Below, piece after piece: positions 17,346-32,931 of a stretch of 64,000 nucleotides of DNA. The notes below the pieces were generated by a model. It made no database searches, was not told the DNA's origin, and worked only from the letters and a program-made list of their open reading frames with translations. This DNA is from an uncultured Clostridia bacterium (GTDB lineage Bacteria; Bacillota; Clostridia; TANB77; CAG-508). Numbering within the stretch: the first letter of the stretch is position 1; each line of letters opens with the position of its first letter. The stretch spans positions 2,328 to 66,327 of the forward strand of contig CANQHI010000003.1 in the NCBI GenBank assembly GCA_947623725.1. The letters run 5' to 3'. A program made the position numbers and the translations under genes.

Positions 17346-17888
17346 ATGAACACTGATTTTTATAAATTATTTAATCTAAGTTTAGCAAAACAAAAAGGAA
17401 CTTTAACTGATGAAATGGTTAAAGAAAATTATCTAAATAAAAGAAAACAATATTTCCAAATGATAAAAAAATGTGGTGATAAAAAAGAAAAATATTCTAT
17501 CATTGAATTAAAAGAAGTTTTCGATGATGATTATTTAAAATTTTTAGATGAAGCTTATAAAGCTATAAAAACAGAAAATGATAGACAAAAATATGACGAG
17601 TCTATTGCAAATTCAAAAAAAGAGTCTAAAAATCAAGATTCAATTAAAAAGAAAGATTCAGATATCAACTCAGTTAATGTTAATGCAGACTCTCAAGATA
17701 ATAAAAGTGATACTAGTACGGCAACCTCTACTAATACTACTTCAAAAGATCTTTCTTTTGTTCCAATATATAAAGGTAATTTTGGAAAAATTCCACCAAA
17801 AAAGGATACTTCTACAAATAGTAAAGATATATCCGAAGATAAACGTAAGGTTGTTTCAAAAAATAATCATGATGACATAGATATATAA
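17346..17888 (+). CDS. hypothetical protein with low-complexity S/T/N/D/K-rich C-terminal half
   Basis: 180-aa ORF with AGGAG 8 nt upstream and a strong terminator right after the stop. Confidence 0.55.
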   Translation: MNTDFYKLFNLSLAKQKGTLTDEMVKENYLNKRKQYFQMIKKCGDKKEKYSIIELKEVFDDDYLKFLDEAYKAIKTENDRQKYDESIANSKKESKNQDSIKKKDSDINSVNVNADSQDNKSDTSTATSTNTTSKDLSFVPIYKGNFGKIPPKKDTSTNSKDISEDKRKVVSKNNHDDIDI

Positions 17889-17897
17889 AAATTATTT

Positions 17898-17933
17898 AGC
17901 ATTTAGAAAAAATTACTTTCTAAATGCTTTTTT
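17898..17933 (+). terminator. intrinsic terminator between convergent genes
   Basis: Perfect 12-bp stem agcatttagaaa / tttctaaatgct with a 7-nt loop, followed by ttttt. Confidence 0.7.
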
Positions 17934-17962: not shown

Positions 17963-19846
17963 CTATCTATCATGTGAAAATCCATCATCTATATTTTTAT
18001 CTTGTTCAACACTAAAATCACTTTCTTTTTCTACTTTATGAGTAAATTTTTGTAATTCGTTTTTTTGCATTAATGGTGTTTTTATTATGTTTCCATAATT
18101 TTCTTCTATTTCTTCATCATCATAATCAATTCCTCTGTAATCTTGCCTATTTTTATCAGTCATATATTCAATATAAGTTTCTCCTGATATACCTGTAATT
18201 AAATCTTTTTTTCGAGGTACAGGCACGGTAACGCCTTGTTCGTATTGTGCTTGAAATTTCTTATCCATATTTTTTTCTAATATAAATGAATCTCCATAGA
18301 ATTTAGCATTTTCAGGAGTGAGTTCTACAAATCCATTTGATAAAATCTCTTCTGCAAACTTCTTACCACCTTGTAAATTAATACACCAATATCCCGCCAT
18401 TGGAGTAGCTTTTCCTCCAAATCTCTTATCTTTAATAAATCTTCCAGATATACTAATATTATCTCTTTTAAAAAATTGCCTATAAGTAGCATCAATTAAA
18501 AAGTTTTTTTCTATATAAGTTCCATCTTGTTGTTTAACTGGTATTGCAACACTATTGAATGCATGTCCTCCTAAATTTTCACCCGTTATAGTTGGATTTA
18601 TATTAGAAACTCTAGCTTCTAATCCCATTTTTTTAAGAATAGTGTATACTATTCCTTGTGATAGGCCACAATATCCCATTAAATCGCTTTCTTTTATATC
18701 ACCTTTTAACTCATTATTCAGACATTTTCTATCTGCTTGCACAACCCATTCTAAAATTTTATTAGCCTCTTCAATAGTTAATCCATCAACCATTTCTTTA
18801 CTATTTAAATTTTTTTCTAATATATTTTTTAACTTTCCCTCTATATTTGCAATATTAGCAAGTTCTATTTCATTATATTTTTTTATATACGGCTGTGTAT
18901 CAATCAAAAATTCTTTTCCTTCTTTATACCCCAATAATTCTTTTAATGACTTTTTTATTTTATCCCATTTTGAAATTGTTTTCAAAGAATTATTTTCACT
19001 CTTTTCTTCCTCTCTAATTTTCTGTTGTTGCGAAACAATTTTATCTTTTGAATTTAATCTCTCTATTAACTCAATTCTTTTGAATAATTGCGACATAATT
19101 GAATTTCTCGATTCTTCCGAGAGTCCATCAAAAGAGTCTTTTAATATTTCTTCAATATCTTTTTTGTTCAATTTTTCTTGAATATTTTTTCCAAATGGAA
19201 CAATTTGTGATGGATATAATTCATATAATTGTTCTATTACTTGCTCTGCAGAGAATTTGTGAAAAAAACTTCTATAATCACATTCTATAAATGCCACTCC
19301 CATATCGTAATATTCTGGATTTCTAAATTTTCCCGTCTCACTATTCTTAATAATAAGCATATTATCCATCTTTATGTCAGTATTGCCTATCAATGCTGAT
19401 ACAAAGATATATTTTTGTAAGTATTCTTTCCTTAATCTTAAATCTTCTAAAGTTATACCTGGAATCGTTGAAATTTTTTCTAAATCATTCTCTATAAAAT
19501 CATCTACTCTATTAATTGGCCTGTATTCAACTAATCCTTCATCTAGTTCCACAAACTGTTCATTTTCATTTAATATATTTACAGATAAACATCCATTACT
19601 TTTTTCATTATCATTTGCAAGTAGAATATCAGCATGAGGAAATCCTATTTTATCCATTAATTTAGCAGATATTAATTCTCTAAAATCTTCATCTTTATCT
19701 CCTCCCATCATGCAACCATTCATTTTATAAAATCCTGTTTTTCCTATTTGAGGAATATAATATTCACCTCTTACAGATGTGAAATTTCCTAGTATATCAT
19801 CTTCGTCTTTTACAAGTGTTAAATCTGATAGTTTAATTCTATCCAT
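17963..19846 (-). CDS. fusion protein: N-terminal protein-kinase/HipA-like domain, coiled-coil linker, C-terminal transglutaminase-like cysteine-protease domain
   Basis: 627 aa. Catalytic-loop-like NTDIKMDNMLI (D157..K159..N162) and YYDMGVAF (DxG, 181-183). GYCGLSQG (C393), GGHAFNS (H428) and LIDATY (D452) have the C..H..D spacing of the transglutaminase core. No signal peptide or TM helix seen. AAGGAGA RBS. Confidence 0.6.
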   Translation of the reverse strand: MDRIKLSDLTLVKDEDDILGNFTSVRGEYYIPQIGKTGFYKMNGCMMGGDKDEDFRELISAKLMDKIGFPHADILLANDNEKSNGCLSVNILNENEQFVELDEGLVEYRPINRVDDFIENDLEKISTIPGITLEDLRLRKEYLQKYIFVSALIGNTDIKMDNMLIIKNSETGKFRNPEYYDMGVAFIECDYRSFFHKFSAEQVIEQLYELYPSQIVPFGKNIQEKLNKKDIEEILKDSFDGLSEESRNSIMSQLFKRIELIERLNSKDKIVSQQQKIREEEKSENNSLKTISKWDKIKKSLKELLGYKEGKEFLIDTQPYIKKYNEIELANIANIEGKLKNILEKNLNSKEMVDGLTIEEANKILEWVVQADRKCLNNELKGDIKESDLMGYCGLSQGIVYTILKKMGLEARVSNINPTITGENLGGHAFNSVAIPVKQQDGTYIEKNFLIDATYRQFFKRDNISISGRFIKDKRFGGKATPMAGYWCINLQGGKKFAEEILSNGFVELTPENAKFYGDSFILEKNMDKKFQAQYEQGVTVPVPRKKDLITGISGETYIEYMTDKNRQDYRGIDYDDEEIEENYGNIIKTPLMQKNELQKFTHKVEKESDFSVEQDKNIDDGFSHDR

Positions 19847-28828: not shown

Positions 28829-29581
28829 TTAATTATTTTTTATGTCTTTTGATTCGATTAAAAGCTCATCAAAGTCAGAAATATATTTTTTGTCTTGCAC
28901 AACTCTATATTTCTTATATTCATCTAAGGCTAACTTATCTGCTATTTCTCTTTTTATTTTACCATTATCCTTTAAAATATTGTACTCGTTTATTTTTAAA
29001 AATACTTCTAATTTTTCTTTCCATTCTTTCATTGAAATAATTTTGCCTAATTTTACTTGTCTTTCTGCATAGTCTAAATACATTGAAACTAGATTATTTA
29101 ATTCTTCTATTTCTTCTTTGTCTAGATAATTTTTTGCAATAGTTACATCTGTTTTAAGTATTTTTCCATTTGGTCCATTTTTTAATAGCTCACTATTTAA
29201 TACAAAGCCTTTTTTTATATACTCTTTTAATGTTTTAGTTGCCCATATTCTAAAATCTGTTGCTTCTTTTGAGTTTACTCTATAACCAACTGCTATTATT
29301 GCATCTAAGCTATAAAATGTGATTTGTCTTGAAACCTTTCTATTTCCTTCGTTTTGAACTACTCTAATTTTTTGAATAGTTCGATTTTCTTCTAATTCTC
29401 CAGTTTTAAATATATTTTGTAAATGATAAGTAATGTTATTTTCTGCAACATTAAATAGTTCTCCCATAGATTTTTGTGTTAACCAAAAATCTTCATCATT
29501 ATATAAAACTTCTACTGATATGTTTTCATTGTTTTGACTTTGATATATGATTAAATCTTTTAAGTTTTCTACATTGTTCAA
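28829..29581 (-). CDS. RhuM-family protein (short form)
   Basis: WLTQKSMGELFNV..NITYHLQNIFKTGEL, FYSLDAIIAVGYRVNSKEATDFRIWATKTLKEYIKKGF, and the C-terminal IAKNYL..EEIEELN.LVSMYLDYAE. At 250 aa it lacks a central segment I expect in typical RhuM proteins. Confidence 0.75.
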   Translation of the reverse strand: MNNVENLKDLIIYQSQNNENISVEVLYNDEDFWLTQKSMGELFNVAENNITYHLQNIFKTGELEENRTIQKIRVVQNEGNRKVSRQITFYSLDAIIAVGYRVNSKEATDFRIWATKTLKEYIKKGFVLNSELLKNGPNGKILKTDVTIAKNYLDKEEIEELNNLVSMYLDYAERQVKLGKIISMKEWKEKLEVFLKINEYNILKDNGKIKREIADKLALDEYKKYRVVQDKKYISDFDELLIESKDIKNN

Positions 29582-29626: not shown

Positions 29627-32407
29627 TTATTGTTCTTTTACATATTCTTGTTCTTTCATTTTTGTTTTTTCTATACTTTTAATCAGCTGTACTTGTTCGT
29701 TAATTTCTCCAGTTCTTGTTGTTTCTTTTGTTAATTCTACTGTTTCTTGAATTAACCCTTTTGTTCTATCTTTTGCTCTAAATATTAATTCTGTTCTTTT
29801 GTCTAAATCACTAACAGCATCTTTTATTTTAAATACTTCAATATCTCTCTTCGTTTCACTTTTGCCTTTTTCCATATAAAACATTTGAGTCCAATCGCTT
29901 AGCCCCTTAATACCTCTCTCATCCCATATAGATTTCCACAATTCATCGCTAAAATATTGTCCATTTCCTTTAAAATTATTTCCAAATTTCTGTACTATTG
30001 CTTGTAAAGTTTTATTATCTCTCGTCTCAGCATATTCATCTGCCATCATTTGTATCTTTTGCATTTCTGCTTCAGCACATTTTTGTTTGTCTACTATAAC
30101 TATAGGTATATTAAAGTCTTCAGCTGCTTTTAAGCTATTTTGCCATATTTTTTTATCTTCCTGCTCATTTCCTGTTTTTATAAAAACAACATAGCTTGGT
30201 TGTTTTCTTGTTCCATCTTTATTGTTTCTATTAAATAGCATCTCATTGTAATTTCCTTGAAGACACCCTTCTGATTCATTTATCATTGTGTTCTCTGTTA
30301 AAAATTTTACTTCTCTTTTAGCAATCGGTCTGAATCTAGCTGCATCTGAACTCATATCTTTAGGACTTGCTGCCATTAATGTCCCTCTATCATAATCTGT
30401 AAATCCATACACCACATTCTTAATATGTGCTGTCGCAAGCATATCATTTCTTATATAACTAGTACAAAATCCTTGTGAAGCTATTTGTGGTCTATTCCAA
30501 TCTTCTCTATACTCTTCTCTTTCATTATTAGTATGATAAGCTCCAATTGATGATAAAGATATGCTAAATTCTGTTCCTGCATCATACACTTTCACCTCTC
30601 CATTTTCTGTCTTTGTAACACCTAGAAAGTTCTTTTCATCAGTTTTAAAGAGTTTCTTATTATACGTCTCTAAATATGCATCATTTAACCCTTCTGCTAT
30701 TCTATCAAGATTTTCCATCTCCATTTTAGGCATAGTTTTACTATCCTCATATATTTGTCTTAAAATATCTAAATCGTCGGTTTCTAATATAGTTCTTAAG
30801 CTGTAAATATATTTTACAAACTGTTCATTTTGCTCAGTTATTTCAAGATTATTGATGTCCATTGCATACTGTTCTACCAATTTTTTAGCATCTGTTAACG
30901 ATTGTCCATAAACGCTCATTAAAACTGCGAACTTAACCCTCTCATCATCTTTCATTTCCATTATTTTTTGATATTGTTTTAATTGTTCCTGAGAAGTTTT
31001 ATTTATAATATTGTCTAATACGCTTCGTTCAATTTCTTCATACTTATCTACTTCTTCCAAATTAGATATATTAAAATAGTTCTTTTTACTTAGTATTTTA
31101 CATACTTGTTCAAGTTGTTCTTCTGATAGCTTCTTTTTGCTTATATCATTAGATAAGTCTTTATATTCTTCACTATATAAATTATTAACAATTTTATCTG
31201 TAATACTAATCCAATCTATATCTTTTTCATCATAAATTTTTAATGTCTTAAAAAGGACTTGTAATGAGTTGTCATCTAGCTCACATATTCTTTCTTGTAT
31301 ATCTGGATAACAAGTAATTAATGATAATTTTTCATTCAAATTAGAGTATTTTTTATCTAATATTTTATATTTGATAGTTCTTAGCAAATCATTATTTTTT
31401 TTGTATAAATCTTTTACTGCTAATTGTTGATTTTTATCCAACGAATAAGTATTTGCTATAATTTCTAATATCTGATCATCTAATGACGCATATTTTAATA
31501 AAGTTTTAACATCGTCACATTTTGAATTTTCTTTTATAAATGATGTAACACTATTTGTACTAATAGTCTCTAAAACCATATTTTTATAAACATCACTTTG
31601 CAATGTGCTTAATAAATCTAATTTTGCATTTTCATCTTGCATACTTTCTATAATTAGGCCTCTTGCTCTATCATCTTTAATTTCTTTGAGGAAATCAGCT
31701 TTTTGTTCCTCATAGTCTGGAGATAAAGAACTTATTATACTAGCTTTATCAATATCACTGTCTAATTTATCTATAGCTTTTATCCTGATATTTTCATGTA
31801 GTCTTGGGATAATATCCATTTTTGTCACAATATAGTCTAATGCTTCTAAAACATATGATTCTTCCATACCTAATATAATTTTGCTTTTAAATGCATCATC
31901 AAATATAGAGAATTCATTCATAGGCCATTTTCTTAAGAACGCAATTTTTTGCTCATCTGTTTCTAATCTTTCCATTATTACATTTAATGTTGGAGAATTC
32001 ATTTGAAAGGTTCTTTCATCACTATTTAATTTTAAAAACTGTTGCATCAAAATATCTGAATTTTTTATATTAATTAATGCTCTCATTTTTAAATCATCAT
32101 TAGGTAATTGGCTAATTAATTCAGCAATTTTCATATCATCTACATTTTTTAAACTACCTAATATTCTCAATTTTAAATAATCAACATTAATTTTACTGAA
32201 ATATTTAATTTTATTTTCATCACTGTCATTTAAAATGCTTGCTGTTATATCTTCTAAAATATGAGTGATTTCTTCTTTTTCCTGTTCTACACCTGTTTGA
32301 TTTAATACCTCCATATAATGCTTATATAATTCCTGCTTTTTTTCTATGCTTCCAATAGATAAATACAATTTTAATTTAAACTGTTTGACCACACCTATAT
32401 TTTTCAT
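29627..32407 (-). CDS. large hypothetical protein: helical-repeat N-terminal ~560 aa plus globular C-terminal domain of unknown function
   Basis: 926-aa uninterrupted ORF. No P-loop, TM helix or signal peptide seen. The C-terminal domain (about residues 600-775, nt 30083-30610) contains AYH625TNN, CTSY651I and GNYNE722MLF....QPSYVVF. Confidence 0.7.
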   Translation of the reverse strand: MKNIGVVKQFKLKLYLSIGSIEKKQELYKHYMEVLNQTGVEQEKEEITHILEDITASILNDSDENKIKYFSKINVDYLKLRILGSLKNVDDMKIAELISQLPNDDLKMRALINIKNSDILMQQFLKLNSDERTFQMNSPTLNVIMERLETDEQKIAFLRKWPMNEFSIFDDAFKSKIILGMEESYVLEALDYIVTKMDIIPRLHENIRIKAIDKLDSDIDKASIISSLSPDYEEQKADFLKEIKDDRARGLIIESMQDENAKLDLLSTLQSDVYKNMVLETISTNSVTSFIKENSKCDDVKTLLKYASLDDQILEIIANTYSLDKNQQLAVKDLYKKNNDLLRTIKYKILDKKYSNLNEKLSLITCYPDIQERICELDDNSLQVLFKTLKIYDEKDIDWISITDKIVNNLYSEEYKDLSNDISKKKLSEEQLEQVCKILSKKNYFNISNLEEVDKYEEIERSVLDNIINKTSQEQLKQYQKIMEMKDDERVKFAVLMSVYGQSLTDAKKLVEQYAMDINNLEITEQNEQFVKYIYSLRTILETDDLDILRQIYEDSKTMPKMEMENLDRIAEGLNDAYLETYNKKLFKTDEKNFLGVTKTENGEVKVYDAGTEFSISLSSIGAYHTNNEREEYREDWNRPQIASQGFCTSYIRNDMLATAHIKNVVYGFTDYDRGTLMAASPKDMSSDAARFRPIAKREVKFLTENTMINESEGCLQGNYNEMLFNRNNKDGTRKQPSYVVFIKTGNEQEDKKIWQNSLKAAEDFNIPIVIVDKQKCAEAEMQKIQMMADEYAETRDNKTLQAIVQKFGNNFKGNGQYFSDELWKSIWDERGIKGLSDWTQMFYMEKGKSETKRDIEVFKIKDAVSDLDKRTELIFRAKDRTKGLIQETVELTKETTRTGEINEQVQLIKSIEKTKMKEQEYVKEQ

Positions 32408-32472: not shown

Positions 32473-32931
32473 TTATCTTATATGTAAAATCTTTAATATT
32501 TCATTTAAAATTCTTTTAAATATTGGCTCTTTATATTCTATCATTTGCATACTTTCTTTTGTTTTATTATTGGTTTGTAATATGGATTTTTCTTTCTTGA
32601 ATATATCATTAGGGTTATACTTTTCATATAACATATCTTGATACTTTTTTTCATTTTGAGCATAAATTTCCTGTAATCTCCTTTTTTCTTCTTTATCTTT
32701 GCACCAATACTGTAAATTAAGTAATGCAATAATAGCTAAAGTTTCTTCTTTTAAATTTTGGTCTTTTATTGGAATATCTTTATCAATAATTTTAAAATAA
32801 TCTTTGTCTTTTTCTTCTTTAAAGAATTCTCTTAATTTTTTTGGAATTTCATTTTTTTGTTTTTCACTTAATAATTCTAAAAACTCATCTATTTCTGCAT
32901 ATGCTTGTCTTGTTTTTATTGATATACTCAT
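32473..32931 (-). CDS. hypothetical protein (152 aa), helical
   Basis: ORF directly upstream of the 926-aa gene. IPKKLREFF...ETLAIIALLNLQYW resembles C-terminal modules seen attached to XRE-type regulators, but no HTH is present here. Confidence 0.55.
   Translation of the reverse strand: MSISIKTRQAYAEIDEFLELLSEKQKNEIPKKLREFFKEEKDKDYFKIIDKDIPIKDQNLKEETLAIIALLNLQYWCKDKEEKRRLQEIYAQNEKKYQDMLYEKYNPNDIFKKEKSILQTNNKTKESMQMIEYKEPIFKRILNEILKILHIR

Follow-up and report, generated by a model that had tools for sequence, protein, structure and literature searches.

A recent fusion of a HipA/CtkA-type kinase core with a complete Cys-His-Asp protein in an uncultured Clostridia bacterium from the rabbit gut

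The described systems closest to the one considered here are CtkA of Helicobacter pylori (JHP0940, PDB 3AKJ/3AKK/3AKL), a kinase of about 300 aa consisting of a HipA-like core without the N-terminal subdomain of HipA, and the kinases HipA and HipT of the hipBA and hipBST modules. By means of a type IV secretion system, CtkA, the product of an integrative and conjugative element, acts on host cells (PMC5536186); no second enzyme is fused to it, and no partner protein of about 150 aa is known for it. Short core-kinase Hip families have already been documented (PMC8262856). Here, we describe a gene of an uncultured Clostridia bacterium whose product joins such a kinase core to a complete protein with a Cys-His-Asp triad, in an order and spacing that it shares with the arylamine N-acetyltransferases (NATs, PF00797), the transglutaminase core (PF01841), and the toxin domain Tox-PLDMTX (PF15645). 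The gene lies in a stretch of 64,000 nucleotides of contig CANQHI010000003.1 (assembly GCA_947623725.1, positions 2,328 to 66,327), hereafter called the window, which contains about 25% G+C and carries nearly all of its genes on the minus strand. The source sample is a rabbit gut metagenome, and the relatives of the gene were found in metagenome-assembled genomes from rumen and gut labelled as uncultured Clostridiales or Clostridia.

The fused open reading frame (ORF) is real, and the motifs that the original prediction had quoted from its translation lie at the positions given for them (Table 1; in the C-terminal half, YCGLSQG at aa 392-398, GGHAFNS at aa 426-432, and LIDATY at aa 450-455). 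These short motifs exceed chance because they are conserved in homologues. The ATG is preceded by AAGGAGAAAAC as ribosome-binding site. The architecture combines one known kind of domain with one that is unannotated but recognisable, and it is unique among the databases covered by the searches. A search of 5.8 billion proteins returned 17 relatives of the fused protein, each spanning one half only. Profile searches gave about 80 clusters for the N half, nearly all of them standalone proteins of about 312 aa (closest P0019, 87% identity), and 53 clusters for the C half, nearly all of them standalone proteins of about 340 aa (closest P0002, 84% identity). The census of domain architectures that had been proposed found both modules together only in the window protein among the 282 proteins retrieved. 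No identical fused protein was found on any other contig, no close relative of the fusion was found in JGI metagenome contigs, and the literature searched contained no account of either the fusion or the C family. Moreover, the full-length protein gave nothing significant against Pfam, NCBIfam, and PDB sequences, with LepB_N (E 0.047) as the only match.

The way in which the two genes were joined is still legible in the DNA. According to blastn, homology to standalone kinase genes stops at 19039, with 89.9% DNA identity over window 19875-19039 for the gene of locus L010 and 86% for that of locus L011, likewise down to 19039. Homology to the standalone C gene begins at 19021, and the gene of locus L001, which encodes P0002, shows 88.6% DNA identity over window 19021-17948, including 19 nt upstream of its start. 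In a three-way DNA alignment, an 18-nt bridge matching neither parent gene (19022-19039) is followed by the former 5' leader and ribosome-binding site of the C gene (19004-19021), whose AAGGAG is now translated as Glu-Glu-Glu, and by an AAG codon (K282, 19001-19003) that stands where the standalone C gene has ATG. Microhomology at the breakpoint, TCAAAAGATA(A/T)AA, extends over only about 12 nt. What had been read as a charged coiled-coil linker is actually this intergenic relic, with its ribosome-binding site and start codon, together with the N-terminal cationic amphipathic helix of the C gene. Since the convergent ORF 17346..17888 has its homologue (45% identity) in the boundary gene of the L010 kinase locus, the window locus is the kinase locus, in which the C gene replaced the C-terminal amphipathic tail of the kinase, the gene of a partner protein of about 150 aa, and three further genes. 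The catalytic residue sets of both halves are intact. The fusion of a kinase core with a complete Cys-His-Asp protein is, thus, real, intact, and recent.

A marker of the RhuM family was observed on both sides of this comparison. The window carries a RhuM-family gene at 28829..29581 (minus strand), and in L001 a disrupted RhuM-like gene (L001:2-368, two short ORFs), whose 3' end has 87% DNA identity to window 28821-28912, lies directly upstream of the standalone C gene. Because this marker adjoins the C gene in L001 but not the fusion in the window, the C gene has moved relative to it.

Table 1. Features of the fused gene and of its surroundings in window coordinates
Feature	Position	Strand	Basis
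Whole fused ORF	17963..19846	-	627 aa plus stop, ATG to stop
HipA/CtkA-family Ser/Thr kinase core, aa 1-269	19040..19846	-	AF2, Foldseek, PADLOC, DNA identity
Candidate Gly-rich/nucleotide loop GNFTSVRGEY, aa 20-29	19760..19789	-	Conservation
Lys41, candidate ATP-binding lysine; partner Glu57 at 19676-19678	19724..19726	-	Both invariant, n=61
Catalytic loop NTDIKMDN, aa 155-162 (Asp157, Asn162)	19361..19384	-	hhalign to HipA, invariance
YYDMG, aa 179-183, Mg-binding Asp181	19298..19312	-	Aligned to HipA D332, invariant
Fusion junction and linker, aa 270-282 (IVSQQQKIREEEK)	19001..19039	-	blastn breakpoints, three-way DNA alignment
Complete, formerly standalone Cys-His-Asp protein, aa 283-627	17966..19000	-	DNA identity, AF2, family
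Cationic amphipathic helix LKTISKWDKIKKSLKELLGY, aa 288-307, from N-terminus of standalone C gene	18926..18985	-	Predicted helix
Cys393, candidate nucleophile, N-terminus of predicted helix	18668..18670	-	Conservation, AF2, alignment to NAT Cys69
His428, start of predicted beta-strand	18563..18565	-	118/119, aligned to NAT His107
Asp452, end of next beta-strand, LIDATYRQFF motif	18491..18493	-	119/119, aligned to NAT Asp122
Bidirectional terminator-like hairpin, common to fused ORF and convergent ORF 17346..17888	17898..17928	.	Scored as terminator on both strands
Distant paralogue of the ~150-aa partner (context, separate from fused gene)	32473..32931	-	28-31% identity

We assign the N half to the HipA superfamily, as a short core kinase whose shape is closest to that of CtkA, and the HipA-like kinase domain of the original prediction is, thus, borne out by fold, motifs, and PADLOC model alike. 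A structure search was run on each half separately, as had been suggested. The AlphaFold2 (AF2) model of the N half, built from a 61-sequence alignment (predicted local distance difference test score, pLDDT, 89.2; predicted template modelling score, pTM, 0.87), matched H. pylori CtkA first in a Foldseek search of the PDB (3akk/3akl, E 1e-9, TM 0.62-0.70), followed by HipA of Shewanella and E. coli, HipT of Legionella and E. coli, and a related bacterial Ser/Thr kinase. The best 31 matches (E 1e-9 to 2e-4) all belong to these kinases, and eukaryotic-type kinases rank far below them. The N half is also similar to CtkA in size but differs from it in sequence, with only 11-12% identity. Residues 36-182 match the PADLOC HipA-like model PDC-M03A (E 6.8e-12), which has been annotated as the HipA component of a HipA and HIRAN pair (PMC13245101). 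The whole family shows weak, scattered matches to the kinase-fold Pfam families CotH, IPK, LepB_N, and HipA_C, and its profile found nothing among PDB sequences.

The catalytic motifs of the N half correspond to those of HipA. Alignment with E. coli HipA by hhalign pairs LIGNTDIKMDN...PEYYDMG with LIGATDGHAKN...TPFYDII, so that D157, N162, and D181 fall on the catalytic D309 and N314 and the Mg-binding D332 of HipA; the N half, therefore, has in common with HipA and HipT both the fold and the catalytic Asp, Asn, and Mg-binding Asp. G27, K41, E57, N155, D157, N162, and D181 are invariant in the 61 N-family sequences, whereas K159 and D161 vary, K159 being replaced by R in one homologue. The conservation of D157, which had been put forward as a catalytic residue, was confirmed; K159, put forward with it, has to be given up in favour of a conserved set formed by K41, E57, D157, N162, and D181. 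In the loop of aa 20-29, where G20, T23, S24, V25, and Y29 are conserved in at least 90% of the 61 sequences around G27, the sequence points to a putative equivalent of the HipA P-loop, and K41 and E57 would, by the convention of kinase folds, act as the ATP-binding pair.

The C half, a complete copy of a cytoplasmic protein of about 340 aa, belongs to a large family without a Pfam or NCBIfam model, which an exhaustive hidden Markov model (HMM) scan of 1.84 billion representatives resolved into 772 clusters at 50% identity, mostly of proteins of about 300 aa together with some giants of 900-2300 aa. We hold with good confidence that it is a clan-CA-type thiol enzyme. The members of the triad follow each other in the order Cys, His, Asp at spacings of 35 and 24 residues, and position 393 is Cys in 107 of the 119 C-family representatives (90%) and Ser in six, with His428 present in 118, Asp452 in all 119, and Gln457 in 116. 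In the AF2 model of this half (pLDDT 86.5), DSSP places the start of a helix (118-131, in the numbering of the sub-sequence) at the Cys, a strand (154-163) after the His at 153, and a further strand (169-176) up to the Asp at 177. A Cys at the start of a helix and His and Asp by beta-strands form the classic arrangement of papain-like enzymes, transglutaminases, and NATs. The likeness to clan CA extends to the position of the Cys in a G-x-C motif at the helix start and of the Asp in a hydrophobic h-h-D motif of a beta-hairpin, but the C family differs in having its own invariant T454, Q457, G505, and Y517 and about 150 extra helical residues.

Profile comparisons point in the same direction. 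Against a profile of ten NATs (E. coli NhoA and nine plasmid-borne NATs), hhalign aligned the C family over 94 columns with P=0.0048, which is a modest match, with a probability of only 7%, and in this single alignment Cys393, His428, and Asp452 fall on NAT Cys69, His107, and Asp122; in the two controls, P was 0.086 for 12 aligned columns and 0.62 for 3. The single-sequence comparison with E. coli NhoA was not significant and had the Cys motifs aligned. Moreover, P0208, a C-family member with tandem domains, scores 33.3 bits with Pfam Acetyltransf_2, above the gathering score of 22.8 bits. Over its His-Asp hairpin it also matches Tox-PLDMTX (E 4.8e-5), a model of papain-fold toxins, and P0138 gives a weaker match to this model over the hairpin. 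Searches of PDB sequences returned nothing for the C-half profile and irrelevant matches only for P0208. The reading of this half in the original prediction, thus, stands as regards the triad (including the conservation of C393), its order and spacing, and the predicted secondary structure, but the papain-like fold was unmatched by Foldseek in the PDB and BFVD. A papain-, transglutaminase- or NAT-like fold is likely from sequence, although not proven.

Standalone C genes occur in surroundings that are unrelated to one another and mostly of a housekeeping nature, with ribosomal, sporulation, and biosynthetic genes as neighbours (for instance, after a sortase gene, after sipL-yunB, or beside ubiA and ribosomal genes). 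The Cys-His-Asp domain was also observed as tandem copies in proteins of 535-587 aa and at the N- or C-terminus of giants of 900-2300 aa from other, apparently higher-GC organisms (P0208, P0239, P0167, P0211, P0270, and P0272 are among these proteins), and P0272 carries in addition a canonical Transglut_core/EDR1-type peptidase-like domain and a DUF4116. A phage origin of either half was considered and rejected, as no relatives of either half were found in IMG/VR.

The kinase family itself offers the nearest parallels to the fusion. Proteins of the same family (55-61% identity) carry a second domain at the same C-terminal position, namely Fic in P0010 and P0011 (703-704 aa) and another fold in P0013 and P0014; they differ from the window protein in the nature of this second domain and in that the own tail of the kinase is retained. 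The domain of P0013 and P0014 (aa ~300-550) is a third, unannotated one on the same kinase scaffold, and P0018 resembles the kinase of P0013 and P0014 with the C-terminal domain removed.

Nearly all standalone relatives of the N half are accompanied by a second gene. Of the 13 kinase loci read, 11 have a gene for a partner of about 150 aa as the immediate neighbour of the kinase gene, downstream in most and upstream in two (L008 and L009), with an overlap of 8 bp where the gene calls were read; the loci without it are those of the two kinase-Fic fusions. As in Hip families, the relatives are, thus, bicistronic with a small overlapping partner gene in either order (PMC8262856), but no search showed this partner to resemble HipB, HipS or HIRAN. 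Given the two-gene arrangement in either order, the kinship with HipA, and the PADLOC match, kinase and partner resemble, by analogy and short of proof, what would be expected of a hip-type toxin-antitoxin or defence pair. The statement that no antitoxin-like ORF adjoins the fused gene holds for the window locus, where the upstream neighbours are greA and a Ham1-family gene and the downstream neighbour is convergent and followed by ftsY; nearly all standalone relatives of the kinase, however, have the partner gene beside them, and a distant paralogue of the partner (152 aa, with a C-terminal amphipathic helix) is encoded in the window, 12.6 kb from the fusion.

Directly downstream of this paralogue lies a 926-aa ORF (29627..32407, minus strand) without Pfam or PADLOC match, and in loci L002-L006 a further paralogue of the partner is preceded by another unannotated ORF, of 612 aa; the 926-aa ORF and the 612-aa ORF of L002 are not homologous. 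The partner family may, thus, accompany several unrelated large proteins. Mobile elements appear in this context as well. Large serine recombinases, 81% identical to each other (L010:1-1404 and L007:1449-4800), are encoded just upstream of the kinase gene in L010 and of a kinase-Fic gene in L007, in the latter with one 167-aa ORF between, which suggests that an integrative element was inserted beside kinase genes or carries them. A link to mobile elements is, therefore, common to CtkA, itself encoded by such an element, and to these two relatives of the N gene.

Cationic amphipathic segments recur in the tails of the kinases, the tails of the partners, and the heads of C-family proteins (for example SLKDKVSNFINNLKNKIIGKD, EKSFFEKILEKIKSFFRKH, and SKWDKIKKSLKAFFGYKEGK), with hydrophobic moments of 0.55-0.80 vs a mean of 0.26 and net charges of +2 to +4. 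In the fusion, the helix of the C gene (aa 288-307; hydrophobic moment 0.55 vs a protein mean of 0.26, net charge +3) has become the inter-domain linker; it is predicted at residues 18-29 of the C-half model and is conserved at the head of C-family proteins. These segments presumably recall the membrane-targeting helices of MinD and FtsA, a resemblance that we take as a lead only.

On balance, we consider it probable that the window protein arose by a genuine and recent fusion, its two parts being encoded by distinct genes in all other genomes found. In the mechanism that we propose, the kinase half would bind ATP-Mg via K41, E57, N162, and D181, as the analogy with known kinases suggests, and D157 would serve as catalytic base for the phosphorylation of Ser/Thr in a cellular protein. 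By analogy with HipA and HipT, such an activity could be growth-arresting and toxin-like, and in the relatives its control would normally fall to the partner protein encoded next to the kinase. The C half would form a thio-acyl intermediate on Cys393, activated by His428 and Asp452, and would then perform acyl transfer or amide hydrolysis, with transglutamination, deamidation, and proteolysis among the candidate reactions. The cationic amphipathic helix between the halves may hold the fused protein at the cytoplasmic side of the membrane, a role that similar helices probably play in the standalone kinases, the partners, and the standalone C proteins. Together with this proposed tethering, the fusion suggests, without proving it, a common place or pathway of action for the kinase and C families.

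Several observations weigh against this explanation. The fusion occurs in one genome only, at about 4x coverage, so that selection for the fused state is not demonstrable; the dN/dS ratios (nonsynonymous to synonymous substitution rates) of 0.18-0.32 against the closest standalone genes show purifying selection on both halves and mostly reflect their history before fusion. As regards the kinase, Pfam HipA_C was not matched above threshold, with one of the 61 N-family members at E 0.034 only, and the partner protein, at most a candidate antitoxin, gave no informative match in Pfam, PADLOC, PHROGs or PDB. As regards the C half, the fused protein itself matched no clan-CA Pfam model, Foldseek of the C-half model reached at best E 0.47 in the PDB and 0.17 in BFVD with no member of the clan, and the match to the NAT profile is the modest one mentioned above. 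Finally, an HMM of kinase tails scored no higher than 6.0 bits on C proteins, compared with 3.6 on shuffles, which is not significant, although in 20 of the 35 C proteins its best match lay among residues 1-30; we therefore see in kinase tails and C-family heads a resemblance between cationic amphipathic helices and no demonstrated homology.

The fusion could also be a neutral accident, or a first step of decay in a degenerating remnant of a mobile element, with no selected joint function and with a kinase that may be disabled by the loss of its tail and partner. We regard this as unlikely. It would agree with a single instance in all databases searched, with the recent origin suggested by the read-through relic of a ribosome-binding site at the junction, and with the L010 locus, which carries the kinase together with a large serine recombinase, the partner gene, and three additional genes missing in the window. 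However, the frame has stayed open over 627 codons in a genome of 25% GC, where stop codons readily appear, both halves have kept every catalytic residue, and the dN/dS ratios are low; moreover, C-terminal fusions to enzymes recur in the kinase family, with Fic in P0010 and P0011 and another domain in P0013 and P0014, and are, thus, tolerated.

A different question is whether the C half is a clan-CA thiol enzyme at all, rather than a PD-(D/E)XK-like nuclease or a non-catalytic helical scaffold that binds a metal or ligand. This is quite unlikely in our judgement. The lack of Foldseek matches to papain-like, transglutaminase or NAT structures would be expected under it, three close members of the C family have weak matches to Pfam PDDEXK_6 (best E 4.8e-4), and 12 of the 119 representatives are without Cys at the position of the nucleophile, six of them having Ser. 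Nevertheless, the conserved Lys/Glu typical of PD-(D/E)XK is absent from an invariant set formed by C, H, D, T, and Q, the Cys stands at the N-terminus of a helix, the triad is co-aligned with that of the NATs, and P0208 and P0138 provide the gathering-score NAT match (P0208) and the Tox-PLDMTX matches over the His-Asp hairpin.

Very unlikely, in turn, is a secreted effector that would phosphorylate and deamidate or cross-link targets of a host or competitor. CtkA, the closest structural relative, acts on host cells via type IV secretion (PMC5536186), the C domain is found at the ends of effector-like giant proteins of 900-2300 aa, and there is the weak LepB_N match of the fused protein. Inspection of the translation by eye showed no N-terminal hydrophobic segment, in agreement with the absence of a signal peptide or transmembrane segment stated in the original prediction, and no secretion-system genes occur in the neighbourhood read, where greA, ftsY, and the Ham1-family gene are the neighbours; furthermore, the neighbours of the standalone C genes are ribosomal, sporulation, and biosynthetic genes, and the partner that accompanies the kinase genes looks intracellular, a pairing typical of toxin-antitoxin-like modules. 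With neither a secretion signal nor a secretion-system context, the label of dual-activity effector or toxin that the protein had first received is a hypothetical one.

An assembly chimera, joining kinase and C-family genes from different loci or strains of the metagenome, is highly improbable. The metagenome-assembled genome has a low coverage, of about 3-5x word depth, and both types of parent gene exist as standalone genes in related organisms, but contigs assembled separately from three runs of the one rabbit-gut sample argue against it: the Logan contigs of runs X1, X2, and X3 span window 18900-19462, 18784-19228, and 18936-19125 with 0 differences, and there are no loose ends at 19021-19039. 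In addition, neither the unique 18-bp bridge nor the change from ATG to AAG would be expected from a join at a shared repeat, and the microhomology of about 12 nt is shorter than the word length of assemblers.

A spore-coat pair of a CotH-like kinase and a Tgl-like transglutaminase, hinted at by weak CotH matches in 7 of the 61 kinases and by one C gene downstream of sipL-yunB, is equally improbable, as the fold matches HipA/CtkA and not CotH and the contexts vary. Little weight is given to a polymorphic toxin, since the N-terminus is an enzyme and not a trafficking domain and no co-oriented gene follows downstream, the sole resemblance being the variable C-terminal domains (Fic, unknown, Cys-His-Asp) on one kinase scaffold.

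As regards the expression of the fused gene, the original prediction had placed it between its own promoter-like motif and a bidirectional terminator. The terminator is supported, with two terminator-like sites observed (the hairpin of Table 1, once on each strand) vs 0.5 +/- 0.6 in shuffles, but the promoter is not, as promoter-like hexamers were not enriched (20 observed vs 24.7 +/- 6.0 in shuffles). The convergent 180-aa ORF on the other side of the hairpin (17346..17888, plus strand) has a low-complexity tail rich in Ser, Thr, Asp, and Lys and is without a Pfam match. Contigs of higher depth from the same sample have only words of about 22 bp in common with the window at joint 17588/17883 and probably derive from another organism.

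Other genes of the window were noted in passing, and GC skew is negative across its whole length. A 572-aa ORF (22292..24010, minus strand) combines an N-terminal GHMP-kinase domain with an S-adenosylmethionine (SAM)-methyltransferase domain and overlaps the TTG-called start of ORF 21241..22362 (minus strand) by 71 bp, because of which this TTG start is probably mis-called. A 362-aa ORF without Pfam match (26634..27722, minus strand) begins with KGITLIALVITIIILLILAG, which looks like a prepilin signal of type IV pilins or pseudopilins, and L011 has a segment matching this ORF beside a protein with a faint Glug match.

The fusion provides a clean and datable example of gene joining, in which an old ribosome-binding site and start codon can still be read inside the new ORF. 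Around it, a Clostridia-specific subfamily of HipA/CtkA-like kinases becomes apparent, with a conserved partner of unknown fold, and kinase and partner together are a candidate for a new Hip-type organisation beyond the ten catalogued (PMC8262856). Likewise, a large Cys-His-Asp family is brought to light, which is also present in giant proteins of other bacteria. As a tentative and speculative proposal, to which we give a low probability, the fusion could act as a 'Rosetta stone' for an undescribed membrane-associated system of gut Clostridia formed by a kinase, a partner of about 150 aa, and a Cys-His-Asp enzyme; such a system, whose three components all bear a similar cationic amphipathic helix at one terminus, might constitute a hip-like toxin-antitoxin or defence module of a new kind, with the thiol enzyme as either a second effector or the regulator of the kinase, and the C family might be a new branch of the NATs and transglutaminases with new chemistry. 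If the two halves do not cooperate, the locus would be a marker of mobile-element decay in an uncultured gut lineage; if they do, the fusion would show which proteins should be tested together.

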